Of a stretch of 64,000 nucleotides of DNA, positions 23,341 to 62,600 are shown in pieces. A program made the position numbers and the translations under genes. The number at the start of each line of letters is the position of its first letter. Within the stretch, counting starts at the first letter, position 1. The notes beneath the pieces were generated by a model. That model saw only the letters and a list, made by a program, of their open reading frames with translations. It was not told the origin of the DNA and ran no database searches. The stretch comes from a bacterium (GTDB lineage: Bacteria; Zhuqueibacterota; Zhuqueibacteria; Residuimicrobiales; Krinioviventaceae), in the NCBI GenBank assembly GCA_963674595.2, contig CAXXFV010000004.1:192001-256000 (forward strand), given 5' to 3'.

Positions 23341-24084
23341 TTATAATAACCCTGAAAAATGATGATCGCTGAAAAGTTTGACCGGATCATTAACTTTTAT
23401 AGGTTCCCGCACATAAAATGGCTCACCATAAGCAGAACCGATTTTATTTCCCCAATACTGTCCCCGTGTAATTATGGATTGTAAAAACTCTTTTGTCGCG
23501 ATATAGGTTGCTTCGTTGCCGGTTTCCTTATTATTTTCCGAATAAAACTGTGATTCATAGGCTTTCATGGCTTTAATTTTGTCGTCAAAGGAATCTGATA
23601 CATCAACAATAAAAGACGGATCAAAGTCATATAATTCCATGTAATAAATTGTTTTGTCAGGACGAAATTTTTCCTGTCCGGTACTAATATTTATAAGGCC
23701 GGAATAAAACGATGCCTCACGAACCAGGCTGGAACAATGGCTGTGGTCCGGATGCCGGGTCTTCCAATAGGGTGCAAAAACAATTTTTGGGCGATATTTA
23801 CGGATCGCAGAAATGACTTTATTTCGGTTCACTTCTGTTACCTGCACTTTACTGTCAGGTATATCAAGAATTTCATTTGCTGATAACCCCATTATCTGAC
23901 TGCTGTTTTCAAACTCTTTTCGGCGAATTTGTACGGTCCCTCTGGTGCCCATTTCACCGGCAGTTAATGAAACCACGCCTACTTTATATCCTTCACGACT
24001 TAGTTTTATCAAAGTCCCTGCACACATTAATTCAACATCATCCGGATGAGCACCGAATGCCAAAACATCAAGCGATAGACTCAT
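23341..24084 (-). CDS. bshB1: bacillithiol biosynthesis deacetylase
   Basis: AHPDDVEL, LTAGEMGTRGT and RHPDH motifs (PIG-L family). Adjacent to bshC. Confidence 0.9.
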   Translation of the reverse strand: MSLSLDVLAFGAHPDDVELMCAGTLIKLSREGYKVGVVSLTAGEMGTRGTVQIRRKEFENSSQIMGLSANEILDIPDSKVQVTEVNRNKVISAIRKYRPKIVFAPYWKTRHPDHSHCSSLVREASFYSGLINISTGQEKFRPDKTIYYMELYDFDPSFIVDVSDSFDDKIKAMKAYESQFYSENNKETGNEATYIATKEFLQSIITRGQYWGNKIGSAYGEPFYVREPIKVNDPVKLFSDHHFSGLL

Positions 24085-24087
24085 AGG

Positions 24088-25695
24088 TTATAACTCCAGA
24101 ATTTTATGTTCCGGTTTTTCAATATCAATAGCGTCATAAATTTTATGAAAAATATCAAAATTATATTTGGTTATAAAAGACAAAATATTAACCATCCGCT
24201 CCTGCAATTTATGTTGAGGAAGCAGATTGATTTGAATGCTGCCAAGTTGGTCTGAAACTGTTTTTTCACGCTGTTCAAACATTCGCAAAATTTTAGTTTC
24301 CAATTGATCATGCTGTTTTATAAAATTTGCCCGTGTTTTTTCAATAATTTGTTCCATTGAAGGATCAATGCCGGATAATGAACGGCCCAATTGTTCATAT
24401 TCATTTGTAATATGGTGCTTTATTGACGACAATTGTTCGTTAATATTATCCGGTATTAACCGGGAGGAAATTTCTTTTACTATTTTTTCCGGCTGAGTTA
24501 TAAACTCTAAAACAGAGATATTAAATTTCGCCAAATGTCGCTGAACTTTAGGCTCAACAAGGGTAAACCCGGCCCTGGGCATAACAACCGGCATGGACAT
24601 TTTAAAATTTTCATACACAGGTTTTAACTGGGCCCAATAGGAAATTTCTCCCGGCCCGGCGACATAGGCAACCGTCGGCAGTAATGTATCCTGAACAATG
24701 GGACGTAACGCAACTTTCGGACTTAACTTTTCCAGCCCTGCCAATAACTGTTCACTGGTATATTTCTCACCGGAAAACATGTTTTGAAAAAGATCACCCG
24801 CTTTTTGCAGACTGTGCCGACCCCGGTCCAGCATAAAAACATTGGGACGATCATTAATAAAACTAATTTGCCGGTGATAATCTTTTTGTTCTAATCTCTT
24901 ATCAGAAACGGATAAACCTTTATTTGTCAGGTCCTCGTTTAACTCTTTTTCAAAAACAGGCAGCATATACTTTTTCAAACGGTCATCGGAACTGTCCAGT
25001 AAAATAATGCCATACTCTGCAAAAAGATAAGAAAACCAGCGGGCAAACGCGGTATGAAAACTTTCACCTGAATGATAGCATTCACCCAATGTTTTAAAAA
25101 CAGATTCTTTAAATTCGGTATCCGGCAACATATTATCAAGCTGCCGAATCAATTCATAAATTGTATCGTTCAGCTTTATATCACTTACGGGCGTCCGTTG
25201 ATTTTCCGATTCCGAATTATATACCAATTTTTCAAATTGGTTCGCCCGGTTAACAATTCCGGTCCATTGTACTTCTTCAAAATCATGGTCCTCACTCACT
25301 AAATAAAAAATCGGCAGTACATTTAAATTTAATTTCGCTGATAAATGCTCTGCAAGCTTTATAGTCGTTAATGCCTTATAAAAAGTATATAATGGTCCGC
25401 CAAACAATCCAACCTGTTGTCCGGTTACAACAGCCAGGGAATCCGGGTTTTTTAATTTTTGAATATTTTCCAGTGTTTTTGGACCGCAATGAAAAGCCAT
25501 GTTCTGGGAATATAAAATATCAACAATGCTTTCCCGGTTGTCCCAGGATTTTGTTAAAACATTATCAGCCTGTTTTTTATAATCCGAAATTTTTCCAAAA
25601 TCACCATTAAAAAATTCAGCAACACGGTCAAAATCATTCACATAATCTTTAACCAGCGGCATATAGCCGGGTAATTTTTCCACAGGAACTATCAT
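24088..25695 (-). CDS. bshC: bacillithiol biosynthesis cysteine-adding enzyme
   Basis: VVTGQQVGLFGGPLYT, SEDHDFEE, YVAGPGEISYWAQ and LQER motifs. Confidence 0.95.
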   Translation of the reverse strand: MIVPVEKLPGYMPLVKDYVNDFDRVAEFFNGDFGKISDYKKQADNVLTKSWDNRESIVDILYSQNMAFHCGPKTLENIQKLKNPDSLAVVTGQQVGLFGGPLYTFYKALTTIKLAEHLSAKLNLNVLPIFYLVSEDHDFEEVQWTGIVNRANQFEKLVYNSESENQRTPVSDIKLNDTIYELIRQLDNMLPDTEFKESVFKTLGECYHSGESFHTAFARWFSYLFAEYGIILLDSSDDRLKKYMLPVFEKELNEDLTNKGLSVSDKRLEQKDYHRQISFINDRPNVFMLDRGRHSLQKAGDLFQNMFSGEKYTSEQLLAGLEKLSPKVALRPIVQDTLLPTVAYVAGPGEISYWAQLKPVYENFKMSMPVVMPRAGFTLVEPKVQRHLAKFNISVLEFITQPEKIVKEISSRLIPDNINEQLSSIKHHITNEYEQLGRSLSGIDPSMEQIIEKTRANFIKQHDQLETKILRMFEQREKTVSDQLGSIQINLLPQHKLQERMVNILSFITKYNFDIFHKIYDAIDIEKPEHKILEL

Positions 25696-44522: not shown

Positions 44523-45617
44523 TTAAATTTTCACAAAATGTTTTCCTGCCAGTTGCCGAACATAACTCTTTAATTCAAGAGAAAGCAAAATCGATAAAAC
44601 CAGCGAAGAGGATAAGCCGCATTTTTGACAGAGAATATCAATATGTAAAGGTTCTTCAGAAAGATATTTTAAAACAATTCTTTCATCATCTGAAGCATCT
44701 TTATAGGTTTTGGCAAGCGGAACCTTTTTCTTTTCAACATTATATTCAGATAATATGTCATCAGGGGTTAACACCAAACGTGCCCCATCCTGTATAAGCC
44801 GGTTACAACCGATGCTTTTCGGATTTGTAATATTGCCGGGAACGGCAAATACTTCTTTTCCTTGATCCAAAGCATATTCTGCGGTAATAATTGCACCGCT
44901 CTTATTTCCGGCTTCAATAACAAAAACCGCCTTACTTAGTCCGGAAATTAATCTGTTTCTTTTGGGAAAATTTCGTGCATCCGGTTTTGTAGACATTGGA
45001 AACTCGGATATTAAAGCACCGCATTCAAATATCTGTGACAACATGGATATATTTTCCGGGGGATAAATGACATCAACACCAGACCCTAATACAGCAAAGG
45101 TAATGCCTCTGTTGGTAATGACGGTTTTGTGGGCAATCGTATCGACACCTCTGGCAAAACCACTAATTACAGAAATATTTTGCCGAGCAATTTCCGCAGC
45201 AAACTTTTCTGTTATCAGTTTTCCATAGGTACTGGGATGTCGTGTTCCAACAATGGCCAGGCTTTGATGGTTTAACTTTTGAGCACATGAGCGAACATAC
45301 AAAATACAGGGAGGATCATAGATATTTTTCAATGATACAGGATAATCCTGATCCCAATAAGTTAAAATTTTGGTATTAAACTGTTTTGCGCGTTTTATTT
45401 GCTCAGAGGCAAACTCAGCATTGTTGGTATTTTTAATTAGCTGAGCCAGCTTTTTATCAATCCCATCAACTTCAATCAATTGACGGGGTGACGCCGACAA
45501 AACAGCCCCGGGTTCTTTAAACCGTTTCATTAAATTAAGAAGACGATATGAACCTACCCCAGGCACACTCGATAATCGGAACAGAGCATTTAAATCAATT
45601 TCTTGATTTTTTTCCAC
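44523..45617 (-). CDS. dprA: DNA-processing protein DprA
   Basis: AIVGTR, SGFARGVD, FPKRNRLISGLS, EAGNKSGA and VFAVPG motifs. Confidence 0.96.
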   Translation of the reverse strand: MEKNQEIDLNALFRLSSVPGVGSYRLLNLMKRFKEPGAVLSASPRQLIEVDGIDKKLAQLIKNTNNAEFASEQIKRAKQFNTKILTYWDQDYPVSLKNIYDPPCILYVRSCAQKLNHQSLAIVGTRHPSTYGKLITEKFAAEIARQNISVISGFARGVDTIAHKTVITNRGITFAVLGSGVDVIYPPENISMLSQIFECGALISEFPMSTKPDARNFPKRNRLISGLSKAVFVIEAGNKSGAIITAEYALDQGKEVFAVPGNITNPKSIGCNRLIQDGARLVLTPDDILSEYNVEKKKVPLAKTYKDASDDERIVLKYLSEEPLHIDILCQKCGLSSSLVLSILLSLELKSYVRQLAGKHFVKI

Positions 45618-45627
45618 AATAAATTAT

Positions 45628-46617
45628 CTATTCAATTTCGGATTTTATTAAATCAAATAATTTTTTCTTCATTATATCAATGTTATCCCCACGAACAGAG
45701 GAGATTAAAATATATTCATCATTCGGATCTATAAAAGAAGGTTTGTCCGGAAATTCGTCTTGCAATAAATCTGCTTTGGTAAAAATAACCAGTTTTGGTT
45801 TTTCAAGCAGTAATTTATCAAAAGAGGCTAATTCATTTAACAGAATGGTATAGTCCTGTTCCATATCTTCAGATGTGGCATCCAAAAGAACAGCCAAAAC
45901 CCGGGTCCGTTCAATATGTTTTAAAAATTGGATTCCAAGTCCCTTTCCCAAGTGGGCACCCTGAATAAGGCCCGGTATATCTGCAGCAACAAAAGTCTCA
46001 AATTGACCGGCCTGCACAATACCTAACTGCGGTACGAGTGTGGTAAAAGGATAATCTGCAATTTTGGGTCGGGCCGCTGTAATACGCGAAAGCAAAGTGG
46101 ATTTACCGGCATTCGGCAGACCAACAAAACCAACATCCGCCAACAGCTTGAGTTCCAATTGTATGTTCTTTTCTTCGCCTTCTTGTCCGGGTTCCCACTC
46201 TTGAGGCGCCCTATTGGTCGGAGAAACAAAACGGGCATTTCCACGTCCTCCTCGGCCGCCTTTGGCAATAATAACTTGCTGCTTGTCTTTAACCAAATCT
46301 GCCAAAATTTCTCCGGAATCAATATCCTTAATGACAGTACCGATAGGAAGACGTATAAATAAATTATCAGCGCTTTTGCCGATTTTATTATCACCCTCTC
46401 CGTGTCTGCCTCGTTTGGCTTTGTAGTGTCGTTTATACCTAAAGTCTAGCAATGTTTGTATGCTCTTATCCGCAACGGCAATAATATGCCCGCCTTTTCC
46501 ACCGTCTCCGCCGCTTGGGCCTCCTTTTGGGACAAATTTTTCCCGTCTAAAAGCCAAACAACCACTACCGCCGTCACCGGCTTTTATATAAACTTTTGCA
46601 CTATCGACAAAATTCAT
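45628..46617 (-). CDS. obgE: GTPase ObgE/CgtA
   Basis: FRREKFVPKGGPSGGDGG, GLPNAGKST, YPFTTL and DIPGLI motifs. Confidence 0.97.
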   Translation of the reverse strand: MNFVDSAKVYIKAGDGGSGCLAFRREKFVPKGGPSGGDGGKGGHIIAVADKSIQTLLDFRYKRHYKAKRGRHGEGDNKIGKSADNLFIRLPIGTVIKDIDSGEILADLVKDKQQVIIAKGGRGGRGNARFVSPTNRAPQEWEPGQEGEEKNIQLELKLLADVGFVGLPNAGKSTLLSRITAARPKIADYPFTTLVPQLGIVQAGQFETFVAADIPGLIQGAHLGKGLGIQFLKHIERTRVLAVLLDATSEDMEQDYTILLNELASFDKLLLEKPKLVIFTKADLLQDEFPDKPSFIDPNDEYILISSVRGDNIDIMKKKLFDLIKSEIE

Positions 46618-46686: not shown

Positions 46687-47360
46687 CTATGAATAATTAA
46701 CAGAAAAAATTTGTCGTTTCTTTTTTGAATCCAGATCTATTTTTTTTAATATCTTACGTAAACCAAACCATCCTATTTTCACATTTCCGTATTGTGGTGT
46801 ATTTAACATCCGGGCAATATTTAATGTACTGGAATTGGGATGAGTTGTTACAATTTTTTTAACTTTATCTTCAATAGACAAATCCGTTCTAATTGGTTGA
46901 TCGGATTGTGTTGTTTTTATCTCTTTGTCCGCAACAGGAGTTGCTGATTTGGGTTCAGTTGTATTAACTTCAACAACGTTTGTTTGTTTACTTCCATTTG
47001 ACAAAAGTCGTTCAAAGTCGCTAACAGCTTCTTCCAACGTGTCAAAGGCTTTTAAAATATAATGAAACTCGAGTAATTCAAAAACTTCATAAACTTCAGG
47101 AATCATTCGAACCAGTTTCAAGTCTCCGCCTTTTTCACGAATACCTTTAATTTCACTGATAAAAATACCCAGCCGGCACTGCTGACATAATCAACATTTC
47201 CTAAATCAATAATGATATTGTATGAACCCGCTTTTAATAAAGAGTTCAATGCATGTTCCAGCTCGGAAGAGGTAGTGGTATCAATATACCCGCCAACCTT
47301 AATAACTGAAACACTGTTCTGGCTTCCAGTTTTTTCTACAGACAACTGAATACCTTCCAT
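46687..47360 (-). CDS. STAS anti-sigma-factor antagonist with C-terminal HTH-like domain, split by a 1-nt frameshift
   Basis: GYIDTTT..DLGNVDYVSSAGW continues as GIFISEIKGIREKGGDLKLVRM..VYEVFELL if one G is added to the GGG run (plus strand ccc at 47168-47170). This joins ORFs 47118-47360 and 46687-47121. GGAG RBS. Confidence 0.85.
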
Positions 47361-47473: not shown

Positions 47474-47502
47474 AATATAGTTGTTAAACCTTAAAATGTC
47501 AA
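47474..47502 (-). promoter_or_regulatory. sigma70 promoter for STAS(-obgE-dprA)
   Basis: Minus strand TTGACA-N17-TATATT. Confidence 0.6.
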
Positions 47503-47529: not shown

Positions 47530-47877
47530 TTATGAAAGATTAAGATATTGTTTAGCACGTTCTATGCTGTTTCTAATATCTTGTCTTTCAGGAGAAATTT
47601 TGAGAATTTGTTCCCATTGATTTATAGCTCGCCTAAAGTCTCCCTGATTGGCATGAATAACTCCTAAATTTTCATGCGCCTCGATATTTTCAAAATCCAA
47701 TTTAATTACTTTTTCATATTCTTTAGCGGCTTCGTTATATAAACGTTGTCTGTAAAGTGCATTCCCGCGCAAAACATGGGCCTGCCATTTATCCGGATAA
47801 TTTTGTATTATAGTATTTAATAGTTCCATTGCTTTTTTATAACTGCCATCAGAATACAATTTTGAGGCATCTTCCAT
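47530..47877 (-). CDS. TPR domain, probably the frameshifted C-terminus of the upstream kinase/phosphatase
   Basis: About three TPRs (AHVLRGNALY, AHENLGVIH). It overlaps the upstream ORF end and becomes in frame if one A is removed from the A6 run at 47879-47884. Confidence 0.7.
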   Translation of the reverse strand: MEDASKLYSDGSYKKAMELLNTIIQNYPDKWQAHVLRGNALYRQRLYNEAAKEYEKVIKLDFENIEAHENLGVIHANQGDFRRAINQWEQILKISPERQDIRNSIERAKQYLNLS

Positions 47878-50800
47878 CTTTTTTGTTATACATATATTCA
47901 TCTTTTTCAAGATTGACATCAAGAGGAAATTTTTCATGATCGGACATTTTCTTTTTATCTGTTAAAGCTTCTTTTAACAGCATTTCAAACTGTTCTTCAT
48001 CTTCATCATAAAAAGTATCATCCGACTCTACAAAATCCAACAATTCATCAAACGATAAACTTTTGGAATCTTCTTCAACAACAGATTCCTCATCACCTTG
48101 TTCAAACTTGAAATCGGAAATATCCCAGTTTATTTCCTCTTCAAATTCATTTTCCGAGTGGTTGTTTATTTGTTCCTTTATTTCATTTTCAAGAATTTGT
48201 TCAGAAATTGTTTCTTCTATTTCGCCGGTTGTGGAAATAACACCTTCTTCATCTATTATTTCAATAAACTCATCAAAGGAATCGGAAAAATCTTTTTCTT
48301 CGTCAAACAACAAAGAACTTTCTTCATCTATAAAATCTATATCCTCAACCGGTTCACCTTCAAATTCATCCTTTTCTTCTTTCTTTTCAGGTTCATCAAG
48401 ACCACCACCGGCATTTAAAGCATCAATAAAATCAAGCTCTTCTTTTTCCGATTGGGTTTGTAAATGATCGGTGTCGGAATATTCAAGATCCCCTATTTCT
48501 TCTTCCTTTTCAGCTTCACTTTCCGGTTCGGTTTCATCTCCGGCAAAGTCAAAAATTTCCAGGTCAGAGAAATCATCGGCTTCCAGTTCAAGGATAGCAT
48601 CATCAGTTTCTGTGTCGGGTTCCGGTTCTATCGATGCTTTTTCGTCTTGTTTAACTTTATCTCTTTCTTCATCAAAAGGAGCTTCAAAAAATTCAGATTC
48701 AGACACATCAATTACTGATTCGTGTTCAGATAACAGTATATCTGTATCCTGGTCAACAATCATATCATCTTCATCATGGACAAAATCAAAATCCATTGAA
48801 TCATCTACAGATGACAGTTCATCATCTTGATTTTCGTGAATATCATCTTCTTTTACATCTTTAACTAATTCTTGTTGTTCATCAGATTCATCACGATCTT
48901 GAACTCTATCCGGCTGCTCAGGCCCGCTTTCCTGCTGACGGACGGTTACATTTTTTCTTTTATCAAATAAATCAACAAGAGGGGTCAGCAATAAAGAGTC
49001 CGGTTCTAAATCCAAAAGCTCCAGGGGGGACTTGAATTCCTGAATTACCTGGGCAACCTCTTCTGTTTCAACCGGCTTTGTTGTAATCTCAGCGTCTAAT
49101 TCAATATCCTTAGATTTTTTATCCTGTTTCGGAAGTTCTTCAGATTCAAACTGTTTCAAATCTTCTTCTTCAGGCAGCGAATAATTTGCTTTTTGTAAAA
49201 TGACTTTGCCGTCAATGGTCAACATGGGTGTTCCGGGCGGCTTAATCCGGCGTTTTTTACCACCTCTGGCAATAAAAGCTTTCCTCAATTCTTTAGTGTT
49301 TAGCCTGGACCGAACAAGTTCTTCATAAATTTTAGCAGCGCTGATGATAGAAAAACTATAACGTTCTGTATTTAATTCTTCACTGATCCTTTTTGCGCCA
49401 TAGTCCGGGAACCGTCGGATAATGTCATAAATTTTTGTTTTTTCTTCAATACTGAGATGGCGAGCTTCAATTTGTTCTTCTTCGTTCTCCAGGGTAAACT
49501 GATCAAGACCTTCTTTTTCAAAACTGGCTTTATACTTGTTATAGGCATAAGTCGTGATGCCGACCGATTCACAGGCCTCTTTGATACTTTTTCCTTCGGA
49601 AACGAGATTAAAAACTTTTTTAGCCCGTTTTAGCTCTACTTTTTCAGCAGATGACTTTTCTTTAATAGAAACAAGTGTAATATCATCGTTTTGTGGAAAA
49701 CCTTCGGTGAAAGCTACAATTTCCCGTTGGAGTTTTTCAACAAACTCACCGGCGGTCAAATGTCCAAATCTTCGTACAACATTCAAAAAACGTTCTTCAG
49801 CAAACAATTGCCGTTTGGCATTCATTGCTTCTGTAATGCCGTCCGTATATATTATTAAAATATCATCTTCAGCTAAAGAGACAGTTCCGGACTCGATGGA
49901 GTTACGAAACAGGTGCTTATCCGGCAAAGAAATACCTATGGGGAAGCCTCGGGGATTTAAATAATAGGTATTATTCGTACTGGGTCGAAACAGAATCATC
50001 GGATTGTGGCCGGCGCTGGCAAAATTTAAGCGGCGACGTTTAGAATCGATAATGACATAAAAAAGGGTCACAAACATGCCCTTTTTCATGTCATTAACGA
50101 CAAAATCGTTTACGCGCGCTAATACTTCTGCAGCATCTTTAATTCCACGTGCTTCTGTTCGTAATGCAGTACGAATCATGGTCATAACAAGTGAACCGGG
50201 AACACCCTTTCCGGAGACGTCGGCTACTACTATACCCAGAGTATCGCGGTCTACTTCTACAAAATCAAAATAATCACCACCTACCTCTTTTGCGGCTGCA
50301 TAATAGGATGAAATGTCATAACCTTCAATATCAGGGAACTCACTCGGCAAGAGCGTTTGCTGAATTTCCTGTGCAACCTGCATTTCTTTTTGCAGACGTT
50401 CCTGTTCCGCCAGGTTGAGCTGCGATGCTTTAAGCTGTTGCGTAATATCGCTAAAAGCCTGGGCAATTTCACCAACTTCGGTTGATGAATCAATATCCAT
50501 TTCTTCAGCGACGCCGGGTTTTCCAAGTTCTTTAACCCACTCCTGAAGACGGCGAAAAGGATTCATTACAATGTAAATCAATAAAAAGAGTCCTGCGACT
50601 CCTATGACCCAAACGAACAATGCCAGACTAAGATTATTTTGCCTGGCTTTAGAAACATCAGAGTAAATTTTGTCTCCATCAATGAACAGGTGGGCCCTGG
50701 ACATTATATGGTCCTGTTCGTCCACAACGGGATAGACAATATCCACGACTTTTTTTCCGTCAGGCTGCCGAAATTCAAAAACATTTTTTTGAATTTCCTT

Positions 50801-51646
50801 AACATTATCGGGAAATTTAAAAGGCTCTAATATTTCTCCTTCATCAGCCCGGGCGATAATCGTGTTGCTGTTATCAACAACAAAGGCATTATATAAAATA
50901 TCCCGATGTTCGGACATTTTTAAAGTAGAAATAGGCTTGTAAGCGCTGGATAATACATCCCACTCCTGACTGCCCGATTCAATAAGCTGCTGCCGTCGTT
51001 CAGGGTCAAAACCCTGAAAGCTTGTTGCAACTTCAGTGGCAAGAACAGAGCAAGCCTGCCGTCCCCTGTCCAGATAATCTTTCAGGACAATATCATCATC
51101 CCTAAAAAATAAAAAGAAATACCCTATTATTATCAATACAGTGTAAATGGACAGGGAGATAAGCCAATAACGTGCTTTTAGAGTTAATGGAATGGTTGGA
51201 ACCGCCAGCCTTCGCTTTGTAAGAGGCTCCCTGTTTTTAACCATCCATAATTCATTTCCCTCTTCTGTCTTTCGGTAATCTATGGAATCCAAAAGGCGGC
51301 GCATAATAAAAATACCCAAACCGCCTTTTTTACCAATTTCGACATAACGCTGCAGGTCTGGATCACCAACCTGGCGCGGATCAAAATATTTTCCCTGGTC
51401 GATAAGAACGATAGTAATACTGTTCTTCTTTAACAAGGCACGAATGGTTATACTGCCTTCCCAATCACGATAAGCATGCTTGATAATATTGGTAGCTGCT
51501 TCATCTATAGATAACTTGAAAGCATTTACAATTCGTTCGGAAAAACCATGTCTTCTACCCACCTTTGTAACAAAATCTCGAAGTTCTCCCAAATACTCAA
51601 TTTTTGCCGGTACTTTTAATTGTTCTTTTACAATATTCCGAAACAA
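47849..51646 (-). CDS. membrane protein fusing RsbW-like Ser kinase + periplasmic sensor + HAMP-like linker + SpoIIE/RsbU PP2C phosphatase + HTH + acidic tail
   Basis: HATPase (DEAATNIIKHAY, DQGKYFDP, GGLGIFIM), two TMs, PP2C (GGDYFD, ADVSGKG, SAGHNP, YTDGITEA, DDIT), an HTH region and a roughly 400-aa D/E-rich region. Confidence 0.88.
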   Translation of the reverse strand: MFRNIVKEQLKVPAKIEYLGELRDFVTKVGRRHGFSERIVNAFKLSIDEAATNIIKHAYRDWEGSITIRALLKKNSITIVLIDQGKYFDPRQVGDPDLQRYVEIGKKGGLGIFIMRRLLDSIDYRKTEEGNELWMVKNREPLTKRRLAVPTIPLTLKARYWLISLSIYTVLIIIGYFFLFFRDDDIVLKDYLDRGRQACSVLATEVATSFQGFDPERRQQLIESGSQEWDVLSSAYKPISTLKMSEHRDILYNAFVVDNSNTIIARADEGEILEPFKFPDNVKEIQKNVFEFRQPDGKKVVDIVYPVVDEQDHIMSRAHLFIDGDKIYSDVSKARQNNLSLALFVWVIGVAGLFLLIYIVMNPFRRLQEWVKELGKPGVAEEMDIDSSTEVGEIAQAFSDITQQLKASQLNLAEQERLQKEMQVAQEIQQTLLPSEFPDIEGYDISSYYAAAKEVGGDYFDFVEVDRDTLGIVVADVSGKGVPGSLVMTMIRTALRTEARGIKDAAEVLARVNDFVVNDMKKGMFVTLFYVIIDSKRRRLNFASAGHNPMILFRPSTNNTYYLNPRGFPIGISLPDKHLFRNSIESGTVSLAEDDILIIYTDGITEAMNAKRQLFAEERFLNVVRRFGHLTAGEFVEKLQREIVAFTEGFPQNDDITLVSIKEKSSAEKVELKRAKKVFNLVSEGKSIKEACESVGITTYAYNKYKASFEKEGLDQFTLENEEEQIEARHLSIEEKTKIYDIIRRFPDYGAKRISEELNTERYSFSIISAAKIYEELVRSRLNTKELRKAFIARGGKKRRIKPPGTPMLTIDGKVILQKANYSLPEEEDLKQFESEELPKQDKKSKDIELDAEITTKPVETEEVAQVIQEFKSPLELLDLEPDSLLLTPLVDLFDKRKNVTVRQQESGPEQPDRVQDRDESDEQQELVKDVKEDDIHENQDDELSSVDDSMDFDFVHDEDDMIVDQDTDILLSEHESVIDVSESEFFEAPFDEERDKVKQDEKASIEPEPDTETDDAILELEADDFSDLEIFDFAGDETEPESEAEKEEEIGDLEYSDTDHLQTQSEKEELDFIDALNAGGGLDEPEKKEEKDEFEGEPVEDIDFIDEESSLLFDEEKDFSDSFDEFIEIIDEEGVISTTGEIEETISEQILENEIKEQINNHSENEFEEEINWDISDFKFEQGDEESVVEEDSKSLSFDELLDFVESDDTFYDEDEEQFEMLLKEALTDKKKMSDHEKFPLDVNLEKDEYMYNKKDGRCLKIVF

Positions 51647-51668: not shown

Positions 51669-53678
51669 TTAATTTGTCTTTTGTTGGCGTAACTTTTCAA
51701 CAGCAGCATCCAATGCGCGTAAAATAGATATATTGTTTGGTTGTAAATCTAATGCTTTTTGATAAAAATCCAAAGCAGTTTTAAAATCACCTTTTGTATA
51801 AGCCATAACACCTTTTGTATAAAGGTCTTTAACTTCGGGGGTCATTTTCATTTGTCGTGCTTCTGCACGTTGTTTTGTTGCTTTATATTTTTTCTGTAAT
51901 TCTTTATTATTCGGATCGCTTTTTAAAGCGTCTTCATACAAAGCGGCAGCTTCTTTCCAGTTTTTATCACGTTCATAAATAGCCGCACGTCTTACTTTAT
52001 CTTCATTGTTTAACCTTAATTCCAGTCTGTTTAACCGATTGGCGATATAAGATTCCACTTGTTTATTTCCACGGGCGAGGCGCCGTGCTCGGTTATAATA
52101 ATTTACAGCTTCATATCGTTGACCACGTTCTTCAAATTTTTTCGCATTTTCAAGTAATTCTTTTAATTTTTGTTTCAAATCTTCGGTTATTTTATCGCGA
52201 AGTTCTTTAACAATTTCACTGTTCGGTTCAACTTCCAATGCCCGTTCACATTCAAGCAAGGCATCCGGGTACTCTTCATCTGCAAAATAACCCATTGCCT
52301 TGTTATAATGCTCTTCAACAAGCTGTTGCTGGCGCCTTCTGGCCGCCGCTTCCTGATCACGTTTTAACAATTCCAGGTTTTCTTCTTCCTGCTGTTTTTT
52401 GATCGCCATATTAATGCGGCTTAAGAGGTCCCTTGCGTCGGCAAGTTCAGGATCATCACCGGATTCATCATAGGTAAGGACTTTGTTAATGGTCGTAAAT
52501 GCGCGCGCATAATCTTTACTCTCAAAAAATTGATTTGCCCGTGCCATTCCGCTGACTATGGCATTTTGTCTTTCAAGCTGTTTCTGCCGGTAAACCTCTT
52601 CCTGAATGCGTTGTATTTCTTTTTCACGAATTTCCGCCAAACGCTGCTCCCGATCTTTACCTATATTCATAACAAAAGATAACCGGTGGCTGCTTCCCAA
52701 AAGAGAATCCCAACCATTCCAATATGAATAATCGAGTTCAAAACCGACAAATTTTAAACCAAAACCATAGGTCGGCATCGCGCTTTTAGTGTCGGTAATG
52801 TCGGGTCGCATATCATAGCCCAGCCTGAGCATAAAGTTTTGGTTAAAATCATATTCTACACCCATGTGATATTGGGTTGGGATATTATAATTAAAATTAT
52901 TTGAAAATTGTCGTTCATTAACATCCATCTCAAAAGCAAAAGTAAGATAGTTTTTTGGATTGCTCATAACAACAGTTTTTGACAATCCAAACCTGTAATT
53001 TCTCGGTGTTGTTTCGCGGTCTTCTATGGCCCGAATACTTCTTTGAATAAAATTCTGGATATTAAGACCGATTTTTACATTGCCTAACACTCCTGAATTA
53101 AAAGGCGACAGTAATATGCCGACATCCGTACCAAATCCGGATTCGGTAATATTGCTGACATTTAATGAATTATCCGCATACCCCGGAAGATCAACACGTT
53201 CCAATTTAAATGTTGCACCCAATGACATCCAGTCAAGCATTTGGTAACCATAACCAAATAAAAACAATGTCCGGCTGTAATTTGTTGATCCCAACTTTGT
53301 AGCATCATCATCCCGAACCGTTATATCACCTGTGGATAACCTGAGAATACCTACAGACATGGTTCCCATTGTCAATGTTGGGTAGGCATAGGAAAAATAA
53401 TTATATTGGGTTCCGGCAGGCAAATTTGAATAATAGAAACCCAGTCCCATTTGAGGAATTTGGTCCAATGCAGCCGGGTTCCAGTATAGCGCAAAAGGAT
53501 CGTTGGCAACAGAAACATAAGCGCCTCCCATAGCCATAGCCCTGGCGCCGACCGGAGAATCAAAAATATCCGTCATTCCTCCCCACTGGCTGCTTGAGTT
53601 TTGTGCAAAACACACCAGCGGAAAAAATAGAAATGCGAGTTTAAAATATTTTAATATTTTTGTTTTCAAATCAGTCAT
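51669..53678 (-). CDS. PorV/PorQ-like outer-membrane barrel with C-terminal TPRs
   Basis: Signal peptide; VGARAMAMGGAYVSVAND..ALYWNPAAL; beta-strands ending DYS...SHRLS; then a coiled coil and multiple TPRs. Confidence 0.85.
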   Translation of the reverse strand: MTDLKTKILKYFKLAFLFFPLVCFAQNSSSQWGGMTDIFDSPVGARAMAMGGAYVSVANDPFALYWNPAALDQIPQMGLGFYYSNLPAGTQYNYFSYAYPTLTMGTMSVGILRLSTGDITVRDDDATKLGSTNYSRTLFLFGYGYQMLDWMSLGATFKLERVDLPGYADNSLNVSNITESGFGTDVGILLSPFNSGVLGNVKIGLNIQNFIQRSIRAIEDRETTPRNYRFGLSKTVVMSNPKNYLTFAFEMDVNERQFSNNFNYNIPTQYHMGVEYDFNQNFMLRLGYDMRPDITDTKSAMPTYGFGLKFVGFELDYSYWNGWDSLLGSSHRLSFVMNIGKDREQRLAEIREKEIQRIQEEVYRQKQLERQNAIVSGMARANQFFESKDYARAFTTINKVLTYDESGDDPELADARDLLSRINMAIKKQQEEENLELLKRDQEAAARRRQQQLVEEHYNKAMGYFADEEYPDALLECERALEVEPNSEIVKELRDKITEDLKQKLKELLENAKKFEERGQRYEAVNYYNRARRLARGNKQVESYIANRLNRLELRLNNEDKVRRAAIYERDKNWKEAAALYEDALKSDPNNKELQKKYKATKQRAEARQMKMTPEVKDLYTKGVMAYTKGDFKTALDFYQKALDLQPNNISILRALDAAVEKLRQQKTN

Positions 53679-53690
53679 AAAATTAATTAA

Positions 53691-56600
53691 TTATTTAACA
53701 ACAGCAATTTTTGTAATGGCTGTTTCTGTTTCTGTTATTATATAAGCCAGGTATACACCATTCATTACCCTGAAATTCTGGCCATTAGTTCCGTCCCAAA
53801 TGACATCACCTTGATGAACACCTTCACTTGTTTGTAACTGGTCTGAACTTTTTGAAAAACTCCAGGACCGTACCAATTCTCCGGTTAAAGTAAAAATCTT
53901 GATTTCAACATCACTCGGTTGACTGAGATAATATAAAAATTTTGTTTCCGTTCTGTCCGGACGTCCAAACGGGTTTGGGTAATTACAAAATGTTTTTTCC
54001 AGTTGTTCTTCAACAACAACAGATAATTTTGAAGAGATACCTAAATCTAATACTTGATTATAATTAGAATCAACAATTGTCAACGGCAGTCCGGATACAT
54101 CAGAGGCCCGGATATTTTCAGGACTGTTGATATATAATTGAAATCCATAGGCACTGCCAACATTTCCAATATCTGCAACAATATCAATAGAATCCGGTTC
54201 TGTACCTTTCAGAGTATCTGGTAAATTCGATTTTAAATCCAACAGGATAAAGTCTGTACCAAAATTCGTCTGCCACGCAAAAACATGTGCCGGATCGGAA
54301 TGTCGAACGGCAGCGACGCGTGAAAAAACGGATGCCGGTGATACCGGTTCACCTTTTTTATCTTTAACAAATATTTTCAAGCTGTCAATAATGGAAACAC
54401 TGCTCGAAGCCGCATCCTTGTTTCTGGCTTTAAAACCCATCATTTTAACATTTTGACTGCCTTTAGAAACAACAGATTTTTCCTGTAAAACATAGGGTTC
54501 GATAACTACCATACCTGCTTCGGAGGATACCAATATTTTTGCCAAATCTTTGTCAATAGAGGCTTGCTGTTTTGTATAGGTGTCATTTGGTGCTTCCAGC
54601 AAATAAAACTTAATCGTATCGGGAACATCTGTTTTATATTTAGGGGCCTGAATTGTCCAGGAAATTGCATCATTTGCACCGGCAGCGGTTTTAATCGTAT
54701 CACCTTTTGTTGTAAAACCATTATCTGAAAGTTTTATTTTAACCTGATAGGAACCGATCAGGTCAGACTCTCCGATATTTGATAAATAGCTTACAACCTG
54801 AAATTCACTACCGACACGCACGGTACCGGAATCAATAAAAACATCCTGGTCCATTGAAGCTAAAAGTTCGACACCTGCTTTATTTAATGTCTGTAAAGTA
54901 AAGGTCTCAGTATCTTTAGAAATTTTAGCGTTTGTACCGGAATTTTGATCAACAGGCGCCTGAATAAAATTAAACTCAAATTTCGACAAACCCTCTGGTT
55001 TGGCAGCGGGAGCCTGTAGTTCCCACTCGGGAAAGATATTATTCTTAACATCCGCAACGGTAACAGAAAGTCGTCTCTCACCTGACAGAGAAAAACCAAC
55101 AGGTAACGGAGCTAATTCGACAACAAAACTGTCCGTATCTGCAAAGCCGGCATCACCCGAATTGGTAATAGATGTTGTAAGGGTAAAATACTGGCTTGTG
55201 GAAACGCGATCTACAAGTCCTTCAGGAGCCGATATTTTTGGAGTTATAGAAACAACAGCCTGGTTTTCAACGGTGATGTCCATAGCATCAGAAAAAATTT
55301 CTAAATCTGCTCCAGACCGAAGGTCCTTTGCATTGACTTTAATTTGTACATTCCCATCGCCGGTCACACCTGGTGCCGTGACTTTCCAGGTAACTCTTTG
55401 GTCGTCTCCTACAGCGATATCCTGGTTTACCGGATTTACAGCGTCGAATTCTTCCGAAGAAAATATAATCTGCGCACTTATATCTTCAGCAACCTGACCG
55501 GAACTTATTTCGGCTGTAATGTAAAACGTTTGATTCGTGGACAATTTATTGTCTCTTGCACCGACAGGATTACTGACCCACAAAGAATCAACACTGATAT
55601 ATCCGCCTTCCTGTGTATAAACGATTAATTCCCGAGTATTGGTTTCAACTTCCACACTTTTATTGGAATTTTCATCTTTTGGAACGCTGTCAGAGTCAAT
55701 TTCTACCTTAACTCGTTTATTTTGCAATACTTCATTCGGAGCAGTAATAGTCCAGCCAATATTTTCATTTATATCAAAATCTTTAGTAGCAGATTCTCCG
55801 TCAGCCAAAGATAATCCACTATCCAATAGATCTAGTTTAAGCTTTCCTTTTGCTGTTTCAGGATCAAGACCGGCAGAGCCAAGGTTGGTAACCCGGGCCT
55901 GTAATGTTGCTGTTTGACCTGTTGATAGATAGGTTGCCCCGTCTGTCATTGTTGTCAGAGGTATTACAGACAATGCTTCCAAATTTAAAATTGCTTTAGT
56001 AACAACTTTTTTAATGGTTATACTTGCTTTAGAAACTTTTTCTTTTCCGTTTTCTTCACCTTTTAATTCAAGTTGAAGGGTATGATTATCTGAAACTTCG
56101 GCTGATGGAGCAAAGATCGTCCATGACAATGTAGCAGAATCCTGATCAACAGTTTTTTCCAGACTATCATCGTCTGCTAACGAATAACGCCGGCTGCCGG
56201 CAATTGCCGGTAATAAAAGTTTGACTTTTCGATTGGTCAAATTCTTTGACGTTTTGACCTTGGCTTCCAATTGAAGGGTCTGTTCCGTAGAAAGCACACT
56301 GTCTTTGGCGCCTTCGGGTTCAATAATTGTAAAATAATCTATTAGCAGAATTGAGGTTTTGGTCTCTACCAGAAAACTATCCTCTTCCACCTCTATCAGG
56401 GCATCTTCAAGTGTGTTCAAATCTTTAGGTGTTTCAGTAATCGCAGCCTTGACCGCTAACGGAGCGGTATCTGTATCAGGGGATTCTAATTCGTAATTAA
56501 CTTCTTTTGATACATCATCTCCTGTAAGACTGAAATTTGCCGTCTGAGGATCCGTTATATAATCTATTCCATCAAAAATTCGATAACCTTCAGGCGGCGT

Positions 56601-59600
56601 AAAGACAAAGTTTCCATCCTTAACCTGAGATGTTCCTAATCTTTCAACTTTGACTGTAACCTTAAATTTGCTCGACGCTGTTACAACCGAATCTGCTGAA
56701 TTTGCCGGGAACACAGAAATATTAACCCGTGCCGGTTCCTGAATTCGAATCCGTGCCTGGTCATCATCCGCATCAGGTTCCTGAATCTGGGCTATTTCAT
56801 CACTGCCGATAGCTTTTGCAGATAATATTTTCGCCGTATAAAGTTCCGAAAGTTCTTCATTAACACCCAAATCATTTACAGCCGTAACATCAAACACAGC
56901 ATAGGCCGTTGAATCTTTAGCAATACGCGGGATTATTACGGTATCCGGTTTAACCATAGACAAAACAGTATTTGATGTGACCTCTCTGGAATCCAATTCA
57001 ACCTTAACACTGTCAACGCCCAAAACCTGCCCGGCTTTAACTTTAACCTGAACCTGAAATGCCTGACCTCGATTAACCAGACCGATTCCATTGTTATCAA
57101 ATGTGTTACAAACTATTTCCGTGTCTTTAACCTGCACCCTGGCATTAACACTTCTCACAATAATATCGGCCGATGCATTATCCGTCAAAACCGGGCTGTC
57201 CGTCGGCAGGTTTTTATCTCTGGCCTGCAATGCTACATCAATTTTCCCTGTTCCGGCCAGCTTTCCATTGTTACGGACAATATAAACCAACGAATCTATA
57301 GCGCCGCCGGGTAAAACCAATCCTACCTGGTTTTTTAATTTTTGTGGTGGAGCGATGTCATAGTCCGCGTCAACAACATCGTTTATAGAAAAAACAATAT
57401 TCTCAGCATTAATATTGACAAATTCCAAATCAGAACTTCCTGTATTAGTAACCTGGACAAAAATATTCCAGTTTACCAACTCATCTCCGGCATTGATAAT
57501 GTCCTCTTGCGGACTGACAGATAAAATTTCAAAAACTGCCGGGTTTTCCACAATGGCCTGAGTTATGTTATTTCCCTCAGGATCTAAAATTGTTACACCC
57601 TGGTTATTATGAACACCCAGGGCATTATTAATATTTGCTGTAAACTCTACATTCCCTGATTCACTACCGGCAGTTATTCGAAAACTCAGTTCCTGTTCCT
57701 GGTTGCCTTGAATGTTTTGAGCAAAAGTAATAGGTGATGTTAATACTTTACCCAATGTTTCGCTACTTGTGCCTAAAGATACCTGAACATCTTTGGCTGC
57801 TTCTGAACCTGTATTTTTGACTTTAACACTTACATCAAAACTCTGTCCTGTATTAACAGTCCCTTCTGAACTAGGGGCAAGATTTTCGACAGCTATAATT
57901 TGCAGCCTGGCAGGTTCATGAATTTTAATAATGGAAAAATTATCATTTGATGACGAAATATCAGCAATTGACCCGTCTCGGGCAACAGCCCTGATAATGT
58001 GTGCCTCAATTTTCTCACCGGTCAAATTCTCAGCATCAGCAGCGGTCAGGTTAAATGTCAGCGTATCAGTTTGACCAACGCCCAATCTGTGACTTTCTTT
58101 TATACCATTTATAATAGCCGAACTTGGCGCTGTTAATTGAACTTTAACGGTATCCAATTCCTGAGCACCAACATTTTGGACCATCACCTTTATAATTAAA
58201 TCCTGACTAATATTTACATAACCCGTATCATTAACAACCACGGGCAAATCAGGATCAACAAAAGTTTTCACAAGCATTACATTAGAGCGGTTAGTTGCCT
58301 GCACGGATGTTTGTTTGGCCTGGGTAGCGATAGTACGGTTTGCGTCATTCAGGTCCGTGGCCGAAACTTTTCCGGTTATTGTAATTTCGCCGCCGGCTGG
58401 TCCGTTTGAAGTAACATCAAAAATTAATGTATCGCGTTCGCCGCCCTTTAACACCAAGTCATCTTCGGTTACAGCCCGTGGACTAAATACATATCCTTCT
58501 CCCGGATTAAACGTAATGTCGTCCTTGGTCGGCTGTTTCAGTTTTAATGAACCACCCTGCTCTGTGTTATTTTCAACATCGAGAAAAATTTGCCAGTCGA
58601 CACTTGTCCCGGGGATAACGGTATCAACAGATGTATATACCTGGTGTAAAACAAGGTTTCCGGGTTCCTGAACATGAACCGTAATTGATGAATCCAGGGG
58701 CGTTAAAATTTTTGCCGACTGTTTTGTATTACGTGCAATAGCTGTTTCAACTTTGGCAACGAGATTATCTTTAAATCCGGGTAAATCAGGTGCATTAACT
58801 CGTACACCAGGTTCCGTCCATACTGATTCTCCCGGACCTAATGATTCAATATTAAAAGTCTGGCCTTCCGGGGAAAATTGAAATACATCCGATTCCGAAT
58901 AAAACCGAATCGTGGTTTGCTGAACAGTATCACCTGATTCCGGATTGCCCGGATTTGTCACAAGGGCTTTAACATAAAATGATTGTTCGGAATTTACAAA
59001 AGAATCTGATGGAACATCTATAATAACCTGGTCCAGTCGTATAGCCGCCGAATCCTGAATTGCCAAACTAACCTGGCCATTTCCCGGAGCTGTTGAAAAA
59101 CTGTATATCAAATTCCTGTTTACTTCGGTCATTCGGACTGTGGCGTTGACTGTTGTTATACCGACTATTGATTCTTCCGCACTTGTTAACTGAACATTAT
59201 AGATCAAACTATCCCGGCTTCCGCCTGAAAGTATTTTACTATTACTTCCATCAAAAAATCCGGGTTTGGTAAAATTAAAATATTCATCACCAATTCCAAA
59301 ACTCAGTTTGGTATTTTCTGAATCCAATAATAAATCTGCTTCTCCTGCATTTTCGAGATGCAAAGTCACTTTCCAGGGCGTAGTCTGTCCGCGAGTGATA
59401 CTCGACTGGCTCAAATGCAGCCGCGTAAATTCCAGTTCAGCAGGGTTTTGGACCTGAATTTCATCGCCTCTCGGTAGTGTACTTTCCGGATGATCATCTG
59501 TATTGACCAAATCGGTCATAAATACAGATCCATTAAGGACCGTCTGTTGGTTCGGTGTTTCCGCAGATACATTTGTAACCGCAATACGAATGGTGTCGGT

Positions 59601-62600
59601 TTGTCCGGCTGATAAAATATTACTTTCACTAACAAAAGAATTCGGAATATCAAAAGTAAAATATTCGGACACGTCGTTGGTGCCCTGAGAAAAAGTCAAT
59701 TCCGCCGTATCATATTGCAAATTATTGGAACCATTATTGACCAGAATAAAATCAATTTTCCATTGATTGGTTTGGCCAATTGTAACACTGGGTGTTGAAG
59801 CAACAATATGATTAAGTGAAAATTTTCCCGGATCACTGACCGTTAATGAAGTTGTTAATTCTATATTATCAGAAAAAGCATTATTGTTTTCAGTACCACT
59901 TATTATTAATTGAGGTAAATACTGGCCCTTTTGAAATGCAAGCGGTATTAATGTCCTTAAAAAGTTTATTGTAACCGTTTGTCCTCCCGGCACACGGTTA
60001 TCATAAGCCGGATCAAGAGCAGCACTGAAAAAATGAAGACCATCGTTAAATTGAAATTTCGTTTGGCTTGTGTTTAAAATTAAATCAGAGCCGCCGATGT
60101 TGCTAACATCAACAGTAAAACCAACCTGTGCACCGGCAGAAACAGTCGTTGGCTGAAGACTGTTTTCAACATATTCGATATTTGCCGGTTCCTGAACGGT
60201 AATAATTTTAGTTGACGATGTAAATTGTTCAACAAAAAATTGATTTCGGTTAGGTTCACGAACACGAACCTGAGCCTGTCCAAACAGGTCACCCAGCACG
60301 TTTCCAATGGTTGTTGCTTTAAAAATAAGGCTGTCGCTTTCACCGGCCTTTAAAATAATGGAATTGGATGCAGATAGTTTTTCCGGCAATGTAAAAGTAA
60401 AATCTTGCTGATGTACGCCTTCCTGCAATAACCTTACCCAGGTATTTTCAGCATTTGTTAAATCGATTTCAACATCAGCGCCGCCGTCATTGGCTACATG
60501 GACCGTAACCCACCAATTTGGTTCAACCCCAAAAGTAACAAATTCCGGAACGGCCTTAATATTTGTTATTTTAAAATCAGATGCTTCCTGTATGGACACA
60601 ACAGCTTTCATAGCTTCAGATGCGGTGATCTCTTTTGCGGCCTGAGTGTTTACATTTTTATAATGAATATTTGCACCTATTAAAACATCACCGACCTGGC
60701 TGCCCGTTTCGGTAACGGAAAAAACAAGCGTGTCTGTTTCATTTGACTTTAACTGTGAACCTAAATTTTGAAGCGCATCCGAACAATTATGAACAAATGT
60801 ATCATTAGAAAACTGCAGGACGCTTGTATCAAAATCCATTTCAATGGTGCTGCCGCCCTGGTTTTTCAACACAACGGCAACAGTCCAGGGGTGCGTAGCA
60901 TCACCAGCAGTGGCTGTTGTTTGTGAAGGAATAATGTCAAGAATGCGCAGGTCATCTGCTGTTTGGACTTCGAATCCTCCAAAAACATCACTGATATTGG
61001 AATTGGTATAAATCTGGTTTGTCGCCTCAACCCGCCCATAAATATCGATAGGGCCTGTTGTTGTTCCGGTCTCATTAACAGTAAATTGTAAATGTCTCGT
61101 TTCGCCGGCAGGAATGGTTAATCCGCCCTCTACCAGAGCTGTAGGGGTTGAAATATTATATTCAGATTCCGTATAATCGGTACCACCACGTTTAAAACGA
61201 ATATATGTCTTGTCTGTGTCTATGGATAACGTCAGATCAATTCCGCCGGTGTTATGAATCCCCATTAAAACAGTCCAGTCAGCTAGTTGCCCGGCAGTAA
61301 CGGTAGATTGAGAAGCGGTAAGCTCTGTAAACTCTAATGATGAGCCTTCGACCACCTGAAATAAATTCGGGATTTGTGTAACAACTTGTTTTTCAATTCC
61401 GGAATTGGCATCACTGTAATTAATTGTCTGACGAACTGTTATATTGCCAAGGTCCGCTTGATCAGTAACTGTAATATAATAGGTCAACGCCTGAACAGCG
61501 CCGCCATCAACAGTTTCAGGATTTCCATCATATATAACAACAGAAAACTGTGAAGTAACATCTTCCAGATTATTAATAAACTGAAATTGACTCGATATCA
61601 AATCGGCTGGAGCCGAGTTTGTAAAATTTAAATTATTTGAAACCTGAGTTTGCAGCTCAATCCCCCGGCTTCCCTGGGCCAGTTGATTATCTTCAATCGA
61701 AATACTGTTAATTGCCAAATTTGCTGCTTGCTGGACAATCCATGCAGGATTTGGGTTTGTAAAGATCGTTGAAATCGAACTTGTACCTACAAGACCATCT
61801 AATTGACCGTTTATTGTAATAACTTCCAGAGCAGCCGTAGACGCTACATCAACTAAAAATTGTAACGTTGCTATTTGATTCGCGGCAATGGATCTGGTTT
61901 CAAACGCCGGAACCTGATAATCAATATCCCGATCAACAGTTCCTGATCTAAATTGAAGGACTGCTGATGTTAATGTTATTTGTTGACTACCACTGTTCTG
62001 CACACGCATGGACACCTGAACATTTGATTGTCCCTGACTAACACGGTCGGTAGCGCTGGTTATACTCAAAATATTAAGGGCACTAACAGTTATAGAGCTG
62101 GATTGAGTGGATATCCCTAAACTCTGGTCATGAACTGTAAATGTTTGTGTACCCGGTGTATTAAAAACAAAATTATTTCCGCCAAATACCATAGGGTGAC
62201 TTGTAAAATTGGTAGAGCCTGGTAATGTAGCAGACCCATCAGTACTGGTAAAATAAATTAACCCGCTGTAATTTGTTTTTTCATTGCCATAAGCATCTAT
62301 AGCACGAACAATAACATCTGTATTAAAAGAATTGCCTGCGGCCACAGATGTCGGATAATTTGAAAGTTCAAATTTGGCCAGACTTCCGGGAAGGACTGTA
62401 ATTGTACCGGTGGTCTTTGTTACACCCGTGGTTTGGTCCACTCCCCGCAGGGTGACCGATTCCACCCGATAAAGGGTCTGCTCTGCTTCTCCTGTTCCAT
62501 TAACCACAGGAATTTTTGTAAAACGCGGGGCATCACCATTGGGAGAACTACTACCGCCAATGGCCGCACTGATAACAATATTACCGGAAACCGGATTTAA

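Follow-up and report, generated by a model that had tools for sequence, protein, structure and literature searches.

The window analysed here is a 64,000-nucleotide stretch of a bacterial contig, and the genes of interest lie on its reverse strand, where a two-TM kinase/PP2C/double-HTH protein is encoded immediately upstream of a STAS protein ending in the second HTH (Table 1). The larger protein has the domain order HATPase_c_2, two TM segments, HAMP, SpoIIE, two HTHs, an acidic region and TPR. Both genes are interrupted in the window: the STAS gene is spread over two ORFs (47118-47360 and 46687-47121, -), and the TPR tail of the kinase has become detached from the main kinase ORF (47849-51646, -; 1265 aa). 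Judged from the sequence, both frameshifts are probably assembly errors, since each falls in a homopolymer run; near-identical intact proteins are on record for the STAS protein (P0006, 224 aa) and for the kinase/phosphatase (P0125, 1371 aa), and a truly split STAS protein as the norm of the family was rejected. With two breaks within 720 bp in genes whose intact proteins are known, indel errors may affect other genes of the window as well.

Table 1. Features of the kinase-STAS locus, in the order of transcription (coordinates are those of the window)
Feature	Position	Strand	Remarks
3386-aa Ig-like repeat protein, FlgD-like C-terminus	53691..63851	-	weak Pfam Ig-like matches
PorV/PorQ-family barrel with C-terminal TPR region	51669..53678	-	22 bp upstream of kinase gene; NF033709 158 bits, cut-off 90
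RsbW/SpoIIAB-like Ser kinase (HATPase_c_2)	51236..51613	-	Pfam E 1.6e-27
TM, probable periplasmic sensor, TM, HAMP	50429..51163	-	hydropathy segments 162-180 and 343-361; HAMP E 0.0025
SpoIIE/PP2C phosphatase	49661..50248	-	catalytic motifs intact; Pfam E 1.9e-49
Kinase HTH1	49508..49657	-	residues 664-713; weak Pfam HTH_23/28/Tnp_1; IS481/paired-like unit together with HTH2
Shared domain, kinase copy	49262..49459	-	residues 730-795; HTH2 and tail helix
Basic tail with KPPGTP motif	49187..49261	-	low model confidence
Long acidic, poorly conserved region	47897..49174	-	median 358 aa and net charge -75 in the 119 best-listed homologues
TPR tail of kinase/phosphatase	47530..47937	-	severed by frame break in A run 47879-47884
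Sigma-70-type promoter of STAS gene	47474..47502	-	TTGACA-17-TATATT, 11/12 match; T tracts on either side of -35
STAS domain (anti-anti-sigma-like), N-terminal half	47118..47360	-	Pfam STAS E 6.8e-8; frame break in G run 47168-47170
Ser61, predicted phospho-acceptor	47178..47180	-	motif YVSSAG
STAS domain, C-terminal half, and linker	46885..47121	-	unconserved linker of ~40 aa; pLDDT <50 at 124-159
Shared domain, STAS copy	46690..46884	-	residues ~160-224 of intact 224-aa protein; IS481/IS3-type second HTH and tail helix
obgE and dprA, usual downstream neighbours	44523..46617	-	obgE downstream in 57/71 testable loci (best 80 of 523)

The conserved motifs of the enzyme are widely kept. Among the 110 best-listed full-length kinase homologues the N-box is found in 106, the G1 motif in 97 and the G2 motif in 110, each of the four PP2C motifs is found in all 110, and a crude hydropathy scan detects two TM segments in 92; sCache_3_2 is detected in the relatives P0332, P0354 and P0371, not in the kinase of the window. 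The KPPGTP motif that follows HTH2 is near-invariant (109/110 of the same homologues), and this tail may fold on a partner or serve as a Thr phosphorylation site. The intact STAS protein P0006 exceeds the TIGR00377 cut-off, and the STAS model overlays SpoIIAA (Z 17.0, rmsd 2.0, 115 aligned). The STAS serine motif is present in 116 of 119 homologues taken from the best 120 of 625 matches, and Ser61, at the position that corresponds to SpoIIAA Ser58, is the predicted phospho-acceptor. Across 42 loci the p-distance of the STAS core is 0.18, against 0.40 for ObgE, 0.45 for ObgE plus DprA and 0.51 for the STAS HTH; a core as conserved as this may reflect more than one partner or an essential function.

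A preliminary description of this DNA had proposed that the C-terminus of the STAS protein is homologous to a segment of the kinase/phosphatase, and both peptides lie where it placed them, at the end of ORF 46687-47121 and at residues 730-795 of the kinase ORF. The pairwise alignment with shuffled sequences that it suggested as a check is borderline when taken alone. The local score of 57 between the two copies is reached in none of 20,000 domain shuffles (maximum 54), but with the complete ORFs of 144 aa and 1265 aa as input, 57 of 5,000 shuffles attain it. Within the window tblastn pairs the STAS copy with the kinase copy at E 0.007; run in the other direction, it ranks an unrelated TPR stretch level with the true match (E 0.009 vs 0.010). 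Profiles are clear. Those made from the best 120 of 625 STAS matches and of 333 kinase matches, with the window's own ORF excluded, give a 60-column alignment at probability 96.1 and E 3.5e-9 (119 STAS vs 120 kinase homologues). Against the wider kinase region the score is 46.1; none of 200 column shuffles exceeds 22.6, and the reversed profile scores 15.8. Alignments from genome loci (77 STAS vs 73 kinase rows, from the best 80 of 523 relatives) give probability 96.9 and E 2e-10. AlphaFold2 models both copies alike at a pLDDT of about 90, as three helices, a 3-residue helix in a loop and a fourth helix, with helices at H163-173, 179-186, 198-207 and 213-223 of the STAS protein, where four helices and no strands are modelled beyond residue 160, and at H70-82, 88-95, 107-116 and 122-130 of the kinase region (region numbering). 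On these profiles and models the STAS and kinase copies are homologous, with matching predicted helices; neither a non-significant alignment nor differing predicted folds, the two outcomes named beforehand as refuting the idea, was found.

It might still be argued, given the borderline pairwise significance, that two basic helical segments resemble each other by chance or that a recent transposon left a functionless scar. We regard this as extremely improbable: the profile score is twice the shuffle maximum, the kinase copy has a p-distance of 0.33, below the 0.40 of ObgE (42 loci), the STAS and kinase copies each fall in a supported clade of their own (see below), and the integrase core is absent from the 30 carriers scanned. 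The profile scores, clades and p-distances already refute it.

What the preliminary description did not see is the type of the domain, the presence of a second HTH just upstream in the kinase, and the occurrence of the domain in unrelated proteins. No Pfam family names the STAS copy of the window, and among the 77 STAS copies from the genome loci there are weak matches to HTH_21 in 14 (best 6.6e-7) and to Tc3_2 in 10. The 73 kinase regions match, at Pfam E<=0.1, HTH_32 (52 regions), HTH_23 (47), HTH_21 (47) and HTH_28 (46). A tblastn search of plasmids with the kinase region returned IS481 and IS3 transposases at non-significant scores (best E 0.2), and six annotated IS481-type proteins are colinear with kinase residues 664-795. 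These six were chosen from search matches and are thus not an unbiased sample; their N-termini align with the kinase region by hhalign with probability 97 and E 1e-10, and the region scores 66 against the IS481 profile, where the maximum of 100 shuffles is 18.6. Compared directly with the same six N-termini, the STAS copy stays below significance (probability 3, E 0.014), and its tie to IS481 runs via the kinase copy. The likeness to IS481 transposases lies in the colinear N-terminal-type double HTH of the kinase (Pfam HTH_23/28 followed by HTH_32/21) and in an L-x-[TN]-x3-R tail that is also present in three of the IS481 proteins, whereas a loop longer by three residues with an aromatic-Gly motif, an acidic linker and an altered helix 3 set the present domain apart, as do the lack of a DDE integrase core and a vertically conserved host locus with fixed gene order; no rve match was found in the window proteins or in the 30 domain carriers scanned.

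The structures that match across both kinase HTHs are Pax5, Pax6, Tc3, Prd, Mu, IstA, Mos1, SETMAR and TnsB, all of them weak matches (Z 4.5-6.4, rmsd 8-10), and the likeness to the paired-like domains of Tc3, Mos1 and Pax is again that of a colinear double HTH. For the kinase region, Foldseek gave no match at E<=0.001, a VIA fold comparison gave none at Z>=8 and the PDB sequence search gave none at all; its ESM Atlas matches to HTH_23/28/29/32 clusters at 0.80-0.83 serve as a lead only. Fold searches with the full STAS model were taken up by matches to STAS domains, so that their outcome bears on that domain. The STAS copy had no usable match in the ESM Atlas and nothing significant in the PDB sequence search, in which a Sleeping Beauty transposase fragment appeared at E 0.44, SYK kinase entries at E 0.09 were dismissed as chance, and no CapS entry was retrieved. 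Taken together, the alignments identify the shared domain as the second HTH of an IS481-type transposase DNA-binding region with its tail helix, not as a new domain; the same comparisons place the complete bipartite IS481/paired-like region of the kinase directly behind its PP2C domain and leave the STAS protein with the second half only. HTH similarity within IS481-related N-termini has been described as only weak (PMC10045372).

Listing the architectures that carry the domain with a profile HMM, the other check suggested, recovered kinase-type, STAS-type and other carriers: a joint profile search yields 553 representatives at E<=0.001, and the best 150 of these comprise 53 kinase-type, 46 STAS-type and 51 other proteins. 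The last group consists of 7 divergent kinases or fragments, 33 short domain-only pieces and 11 other architectures, which in the 30 proteins scanned include an FHA fusion, a T2SS-C-like protein, HTH repeat proteins and glycosyltransferase-2 proteins that bear two pairs of HTHs. The domain is therefore not private to the kinase-STAS pair, and a new family confined to the pair was rejected, given the IS481-type HTH and the unrelated carriers. Several carriers deserve mention on their own account. P0336 is an FHA protein bearing a STAS-type HTH; P0330, P0364, P0368, P0351 and P0353 are glycosyltransferase-2 proteins or relatives that start with two tandem IS481-like HTH pairs, probably a separate case of domestication; and P0316, P0366, P0245 and P0377 have three to five tandem HTH-plus-tail units, in one case N-terminal to T2SS protein C/PDZ. 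Long-linker paralogue families, one of them named Calditrichia, are also found among the STAS carriers.

In a domain tree of 107 rows and 65 columns, 30 kinase copies form one clade (99/93), and 43 of 45 STAS copies form, with the FHA copy, a separate one (97/84). STAS and kinase copies are sisters in 78 of 200 bootstrap trees (76 rows), or in 127 of 200 when two kinase-like second copies are removed, with an AU p of 0.485. A common 11-residue loop (75/76 STAS and kinase rows) with an aromatic-Gly-type motif (74/76) favours their sistership over IS481; by loop length and motif the IS481 proteins score 1/6 and 0/6, the T2SS-C copies 0/6 and, by length, the repeat copies 0/8. Glycosyltransferase-type copies have an equal loop length in 4 of 10 cases, and the glycosyltransferase-fused copies are by profile as near to both copies (87-94 vs 91). 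On this sequence evidence a duplication within the locus is likely.

The adjacent kinase/phosphatase-STAS pair, like the HTH fold, had been foreseen, and profiles, models and a locus survey agree on both. The survey kept 80 of 523 relatives, those most similar to the full STAS-HTH protein, so the presence of the domain in 80/80 loci is not an estimate of frequency. The genomes are labelled KSB1 and Calditrichota, with some Cytophagia or Deferribacteres, and the pair is conserved in KSB1/Calditrichota-type genomes. Within this set the kinase gene is upstream of the STAS gene in 75/80 loci; three of the other five are at contig ends, one has the TPR tail only, and one (L001) has a PPIase gene in its place, so that L001:230-736 is the sole clear exception to the gene order. 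A PorV-family gene adjoins the kinase gene in 62/64 testable loci, the misses being due to a contig edge and the distance cut-off, and a giant Ig-like gene precedes the PorV-like gene in 58/58. Recurrent neighbours are the PorV-like and Ig-like genes, obgE, dprA, a tRNA synthetase gene and icd; PADLOC matched DprA alone of the 6 proteins tested. The 3386-aa Ig-like protein is a probable T9SS-type cargo. The PorV-barrel/TPR and Ig-like genes of the window (51669-63851, -) are tightly linked to the kinase gene and make up a T9SS-like module outside Bacteroidota.

Could this be an ordinary RsbV/RsbW/RsbU-type circuit for a sigma factor encoded elsewhere, in which the HTHs would be accessory, non-specific nucleoid tethers? 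The three catalytic or substrate domains of RsbV/RsbW/RsbU and SpoIIAA/SpoIIAB/SpoIIE are all intact here, together with the serine motif; the STAS protein passes TIGR00377 and overlays SpoIIAA, the kinase domain is RsbW-like, and the STAS core is the most conserved part. In contrast to those systems, kinase and phosphatase are fused and membrane-anchored, the STAS protein is multidomain, and no sigma factor gene is conserved in the flanks: a scan of 139 of the 164 neighbour-family representatives, from which 25 likely shadow or partial ORFs were excluded, found one ECF family only, in 2/80 loci and about 9 kb off, and 32 further ORFs of the window contain no sigma factor. A cognate sigma factor may sit elsewhere in the genome, as the upstream flanks ended within the giant gene. 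The kinase domain built into a membrane protein and the retention of the HTH across several divergent families of STAS paralogues, whose linkers are long and unrelated, also speak against such a circuit, which we consider unlikely.

A sigma-70-type promoter lies between the two genes and is conserved, with a match of at least 10/12 in 63 of the 72 kinase-STAS intergenic regions (best 80 of 523 loci; shuffle mean 4.3, maximum 10). T tracts flank the -35 box in 78-95% of 64 sites, unlike 38 other promoter-like sites, which mostly represent one orthologous promoter; the tracts may be a weak candidate operator but could equally be UP-like or a generic feature. Inverted repeats within 25 bp of the STAS promoter show no excess in 61 loci and are rarer than in shuffles.

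The two copies have diverged in a systematic manner. The STAS copy is basic in 77/77 rows (median +7, net +4 to +11), whereas kinase HTH2 has a net charge of 0, an inter-HTH linker of -4, where the aligned IS481 linkers are basic, and a tail of +6. Positions 2-3 of helix 3 are hydrophobic, mostly WF, FF or YF, in 40/45 STAS rows and in 0/60 other copies, and position 8 is Glu in 30/30 kinase rows, 2/45 STAS rows and 0/30 other rows. The hydrophobic pair would sit, going by the alignment and general knowledge of HTHs, at positions that face DNA in transposases. The HTH1 helix is canonical in 7/25 parsed representatives and in 0/44 parsed locus rows. A common DNA site for the two proteins, as first suggested, is therefore doubtful, and with presumed recognition helices that differ systematically the STAS and kinase copies are unlikely to recognise a single site alike. 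Co-evolution as a cognate pair was not borne out beyond shared inheritance: in 42 loci, a sample of low power, the mirror-tree partial correlation corrected for ObgE plus DprA is 0.15 (control windows -0.09 to 0.30), and the fraction of MI-APC covariation pairs with z>3 is 0.0052, against 0.0053-0.0058 in controls.

These changes invite a different explanation, in which the duplicated HTHs are now protein-docking modules. The basic, aromatic STAS copy would bind either the neutral copy of the kinase, or the kinase's acidic region acting as a DNA mimic, or some other protein, for pair specificity or substrate sequestration, with DNA binding lost or secondary. The clade-specific helix 3 changes are complementary, kinase HTH2 is neutral, its linker and the long region that follows are acidic, and the near-family HTH1 helix is non-canonical; in P0251 and P0259, moreover, a STAS protein holds in a single chain a truncated STAS-type copy and a more kinase-like second copy, with a coiled-coil-like stretch between them. 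Set against this are the lack of covariation or mirror-tree excess between the copies, at the low power noted, the canonical transposase-like HTH1 helix retained in divergent kinases, and L001, in which a STAS-HTH protein occurs without the kinase upstream. We hold docking to be a serious but rather unlikely account.

The reading we prefer, with a confidence somewhat short of even, is that of a partner switch in which phosphorylation of Ser61 gates DNA binding by the STAS-HTH protein. A periplasmic signal would pass through the TM-HAMP unit and set kinase against phosphatase; the resulting balance would determine whether Ser61 is phosphorylated, and its state would alter STAS oligomerisation or membrane capture and thereby switch DNA binding by the basic HTH, whose targets would probably include its own promoter, as in CapS. 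The kinase HTH pair would be the older, complete module, as its fusion directly after PP2C and the canonical HTH1 of divergent kinases suggest, and would most likely act as a DNA tether of the enzyme or a dock for the substrate, without having to read the same site. Several observations argue for the STAS protein as output: the homology, the HTH fold, its transposase type and the basic STAS copy in 77/77 rows; the intact catalytic sets and serine motif with the kinase upstream in most of the best 80 loci; the near absence of sigma genes among the neighbours scanned; and the conserved intergenic promoter, in the same layout as that of CapS binding to its own promoter. It is weakened by the hydrophobic pair at DNA-facing positions of helix 3, which is equally interface-like, by the lack of inverted-repeat excess, by the flexible 40-aa linker, unlike the compact CapS, and by the dispensability of the CapK HTH (PMC13373217); the contrast in p-distance between STAS core and HTH also agrees with a constraint set mainly by ordinary partner binding.

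That an HTH-bearing STAS protein could itself be the transcriptional output, as the preliminary description suggested, has a tested precedent in CapS, a STAS-HTH protein that acts as a phosphorylation-switched repressor (PMC13373217, EMBO J 2026), and with this precedent the idea is not categorically new. According to the accessible text of that article, CapS binds its own promoter, situated between capK- and capS-type genes, phosphorylation breaks the CapS dimer and frees the DNA, and ssDNA activates CapK. Shared with the present locus are adjoining genes for a GHKL anti-sigma-like kinase and a STAS-HTH protein, an HTH in both partners, the conserved STAS serine and a promoter between the genes. 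The differences are considerable: in CapS a winged ArsR/MarR-type HTH adjoins the STAS domain directly, whereas here an all-helical IS481-type HTH follows the long linker; CapK is a soluble, ssDNA-activated HTH-STAS-GHKL protein, whereas the kinase here is arranged as kinase-TM-sensor-TM-HAMP-PP2C-HTH-HTH-acidic-TPR; CapKS systems flank immune operons and use palindromes, whereas the present locus lies among PorV-like, Ig-like, obgE and dprA genes and shows no palindrome excess at the STAS promoter; and the accessible text makes no mention of homology between the HTHs of CapK and CapS, such as exists here. Membership of the CapKS family was ruled out, since HTH type, kinase architecture and immune neighbourhood all differ, yet the system may by analogy work like CapK and CapS. 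A second tested precedent is SypE/SypA of Vibrio fischeri, a bifunctional enzyme with a downstream STAS substrate (PMC10120452), which likewise joins an N-terminal Ser kinase and a C-terminal PP2C in a single polypeptide; SypE is switched by a central receiver domain where a membrane sensor with HAMP is found here, and SypA is a single STAS domain of 105 aa, whereas both proteins here bear HTHs.

Open-licence PMC and bioRxiv literature yielded no description of the kinase-STAS locus, and the pair is apparently undescribed. As a partner-switch pair with an IS481-type HTH in enzyme and substrate it is, by its sequence, real and conserved, with a predicted function. If the STAS-HTH protein is indeed the output, this would be a second, independently built partner switch with the STAS protein as its transcriptional output, in this case housekeeping-linked, membrane-sensing and reversible, and a clear bacterial case of enzyme and substrate both retaining a transposase DNA-binding domain. 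The pair would also offer a concrete regulator candidate for the little-studied KSB1/Calditrichota-type bacteria, in which the switch may be wired directly to gene control. The scheme could be extended to a pathway across the envelope that derives from a domesticated transposase. The giant Ig-like surface protein and the PorV-like barrel with a periplasmic TPR arm would feed signals to the kinase/phosphatase in the membrane, and STAS phosphorylation would govern whether the STAS HTH joins the HTH pair of the kinase at target promoters, the three forming a composite, paired-like unit that binds DNA, without any alternative sigma factor; we give this elaboration little credence.

Two further features of the region were observed. 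In loci L004-L074 another conserved sigma-70-type promoter, preceded by an A tract, lies past dprA at about 2.9 kb downstream from the STAS start, and in many loci it fronts a Glu/Gln-tRNA synthetase gene. Elsewhere in the window (23341-25695, -), the bacillithiol genes bshB1 and bshC exceed their NCBIfam cut-offs.
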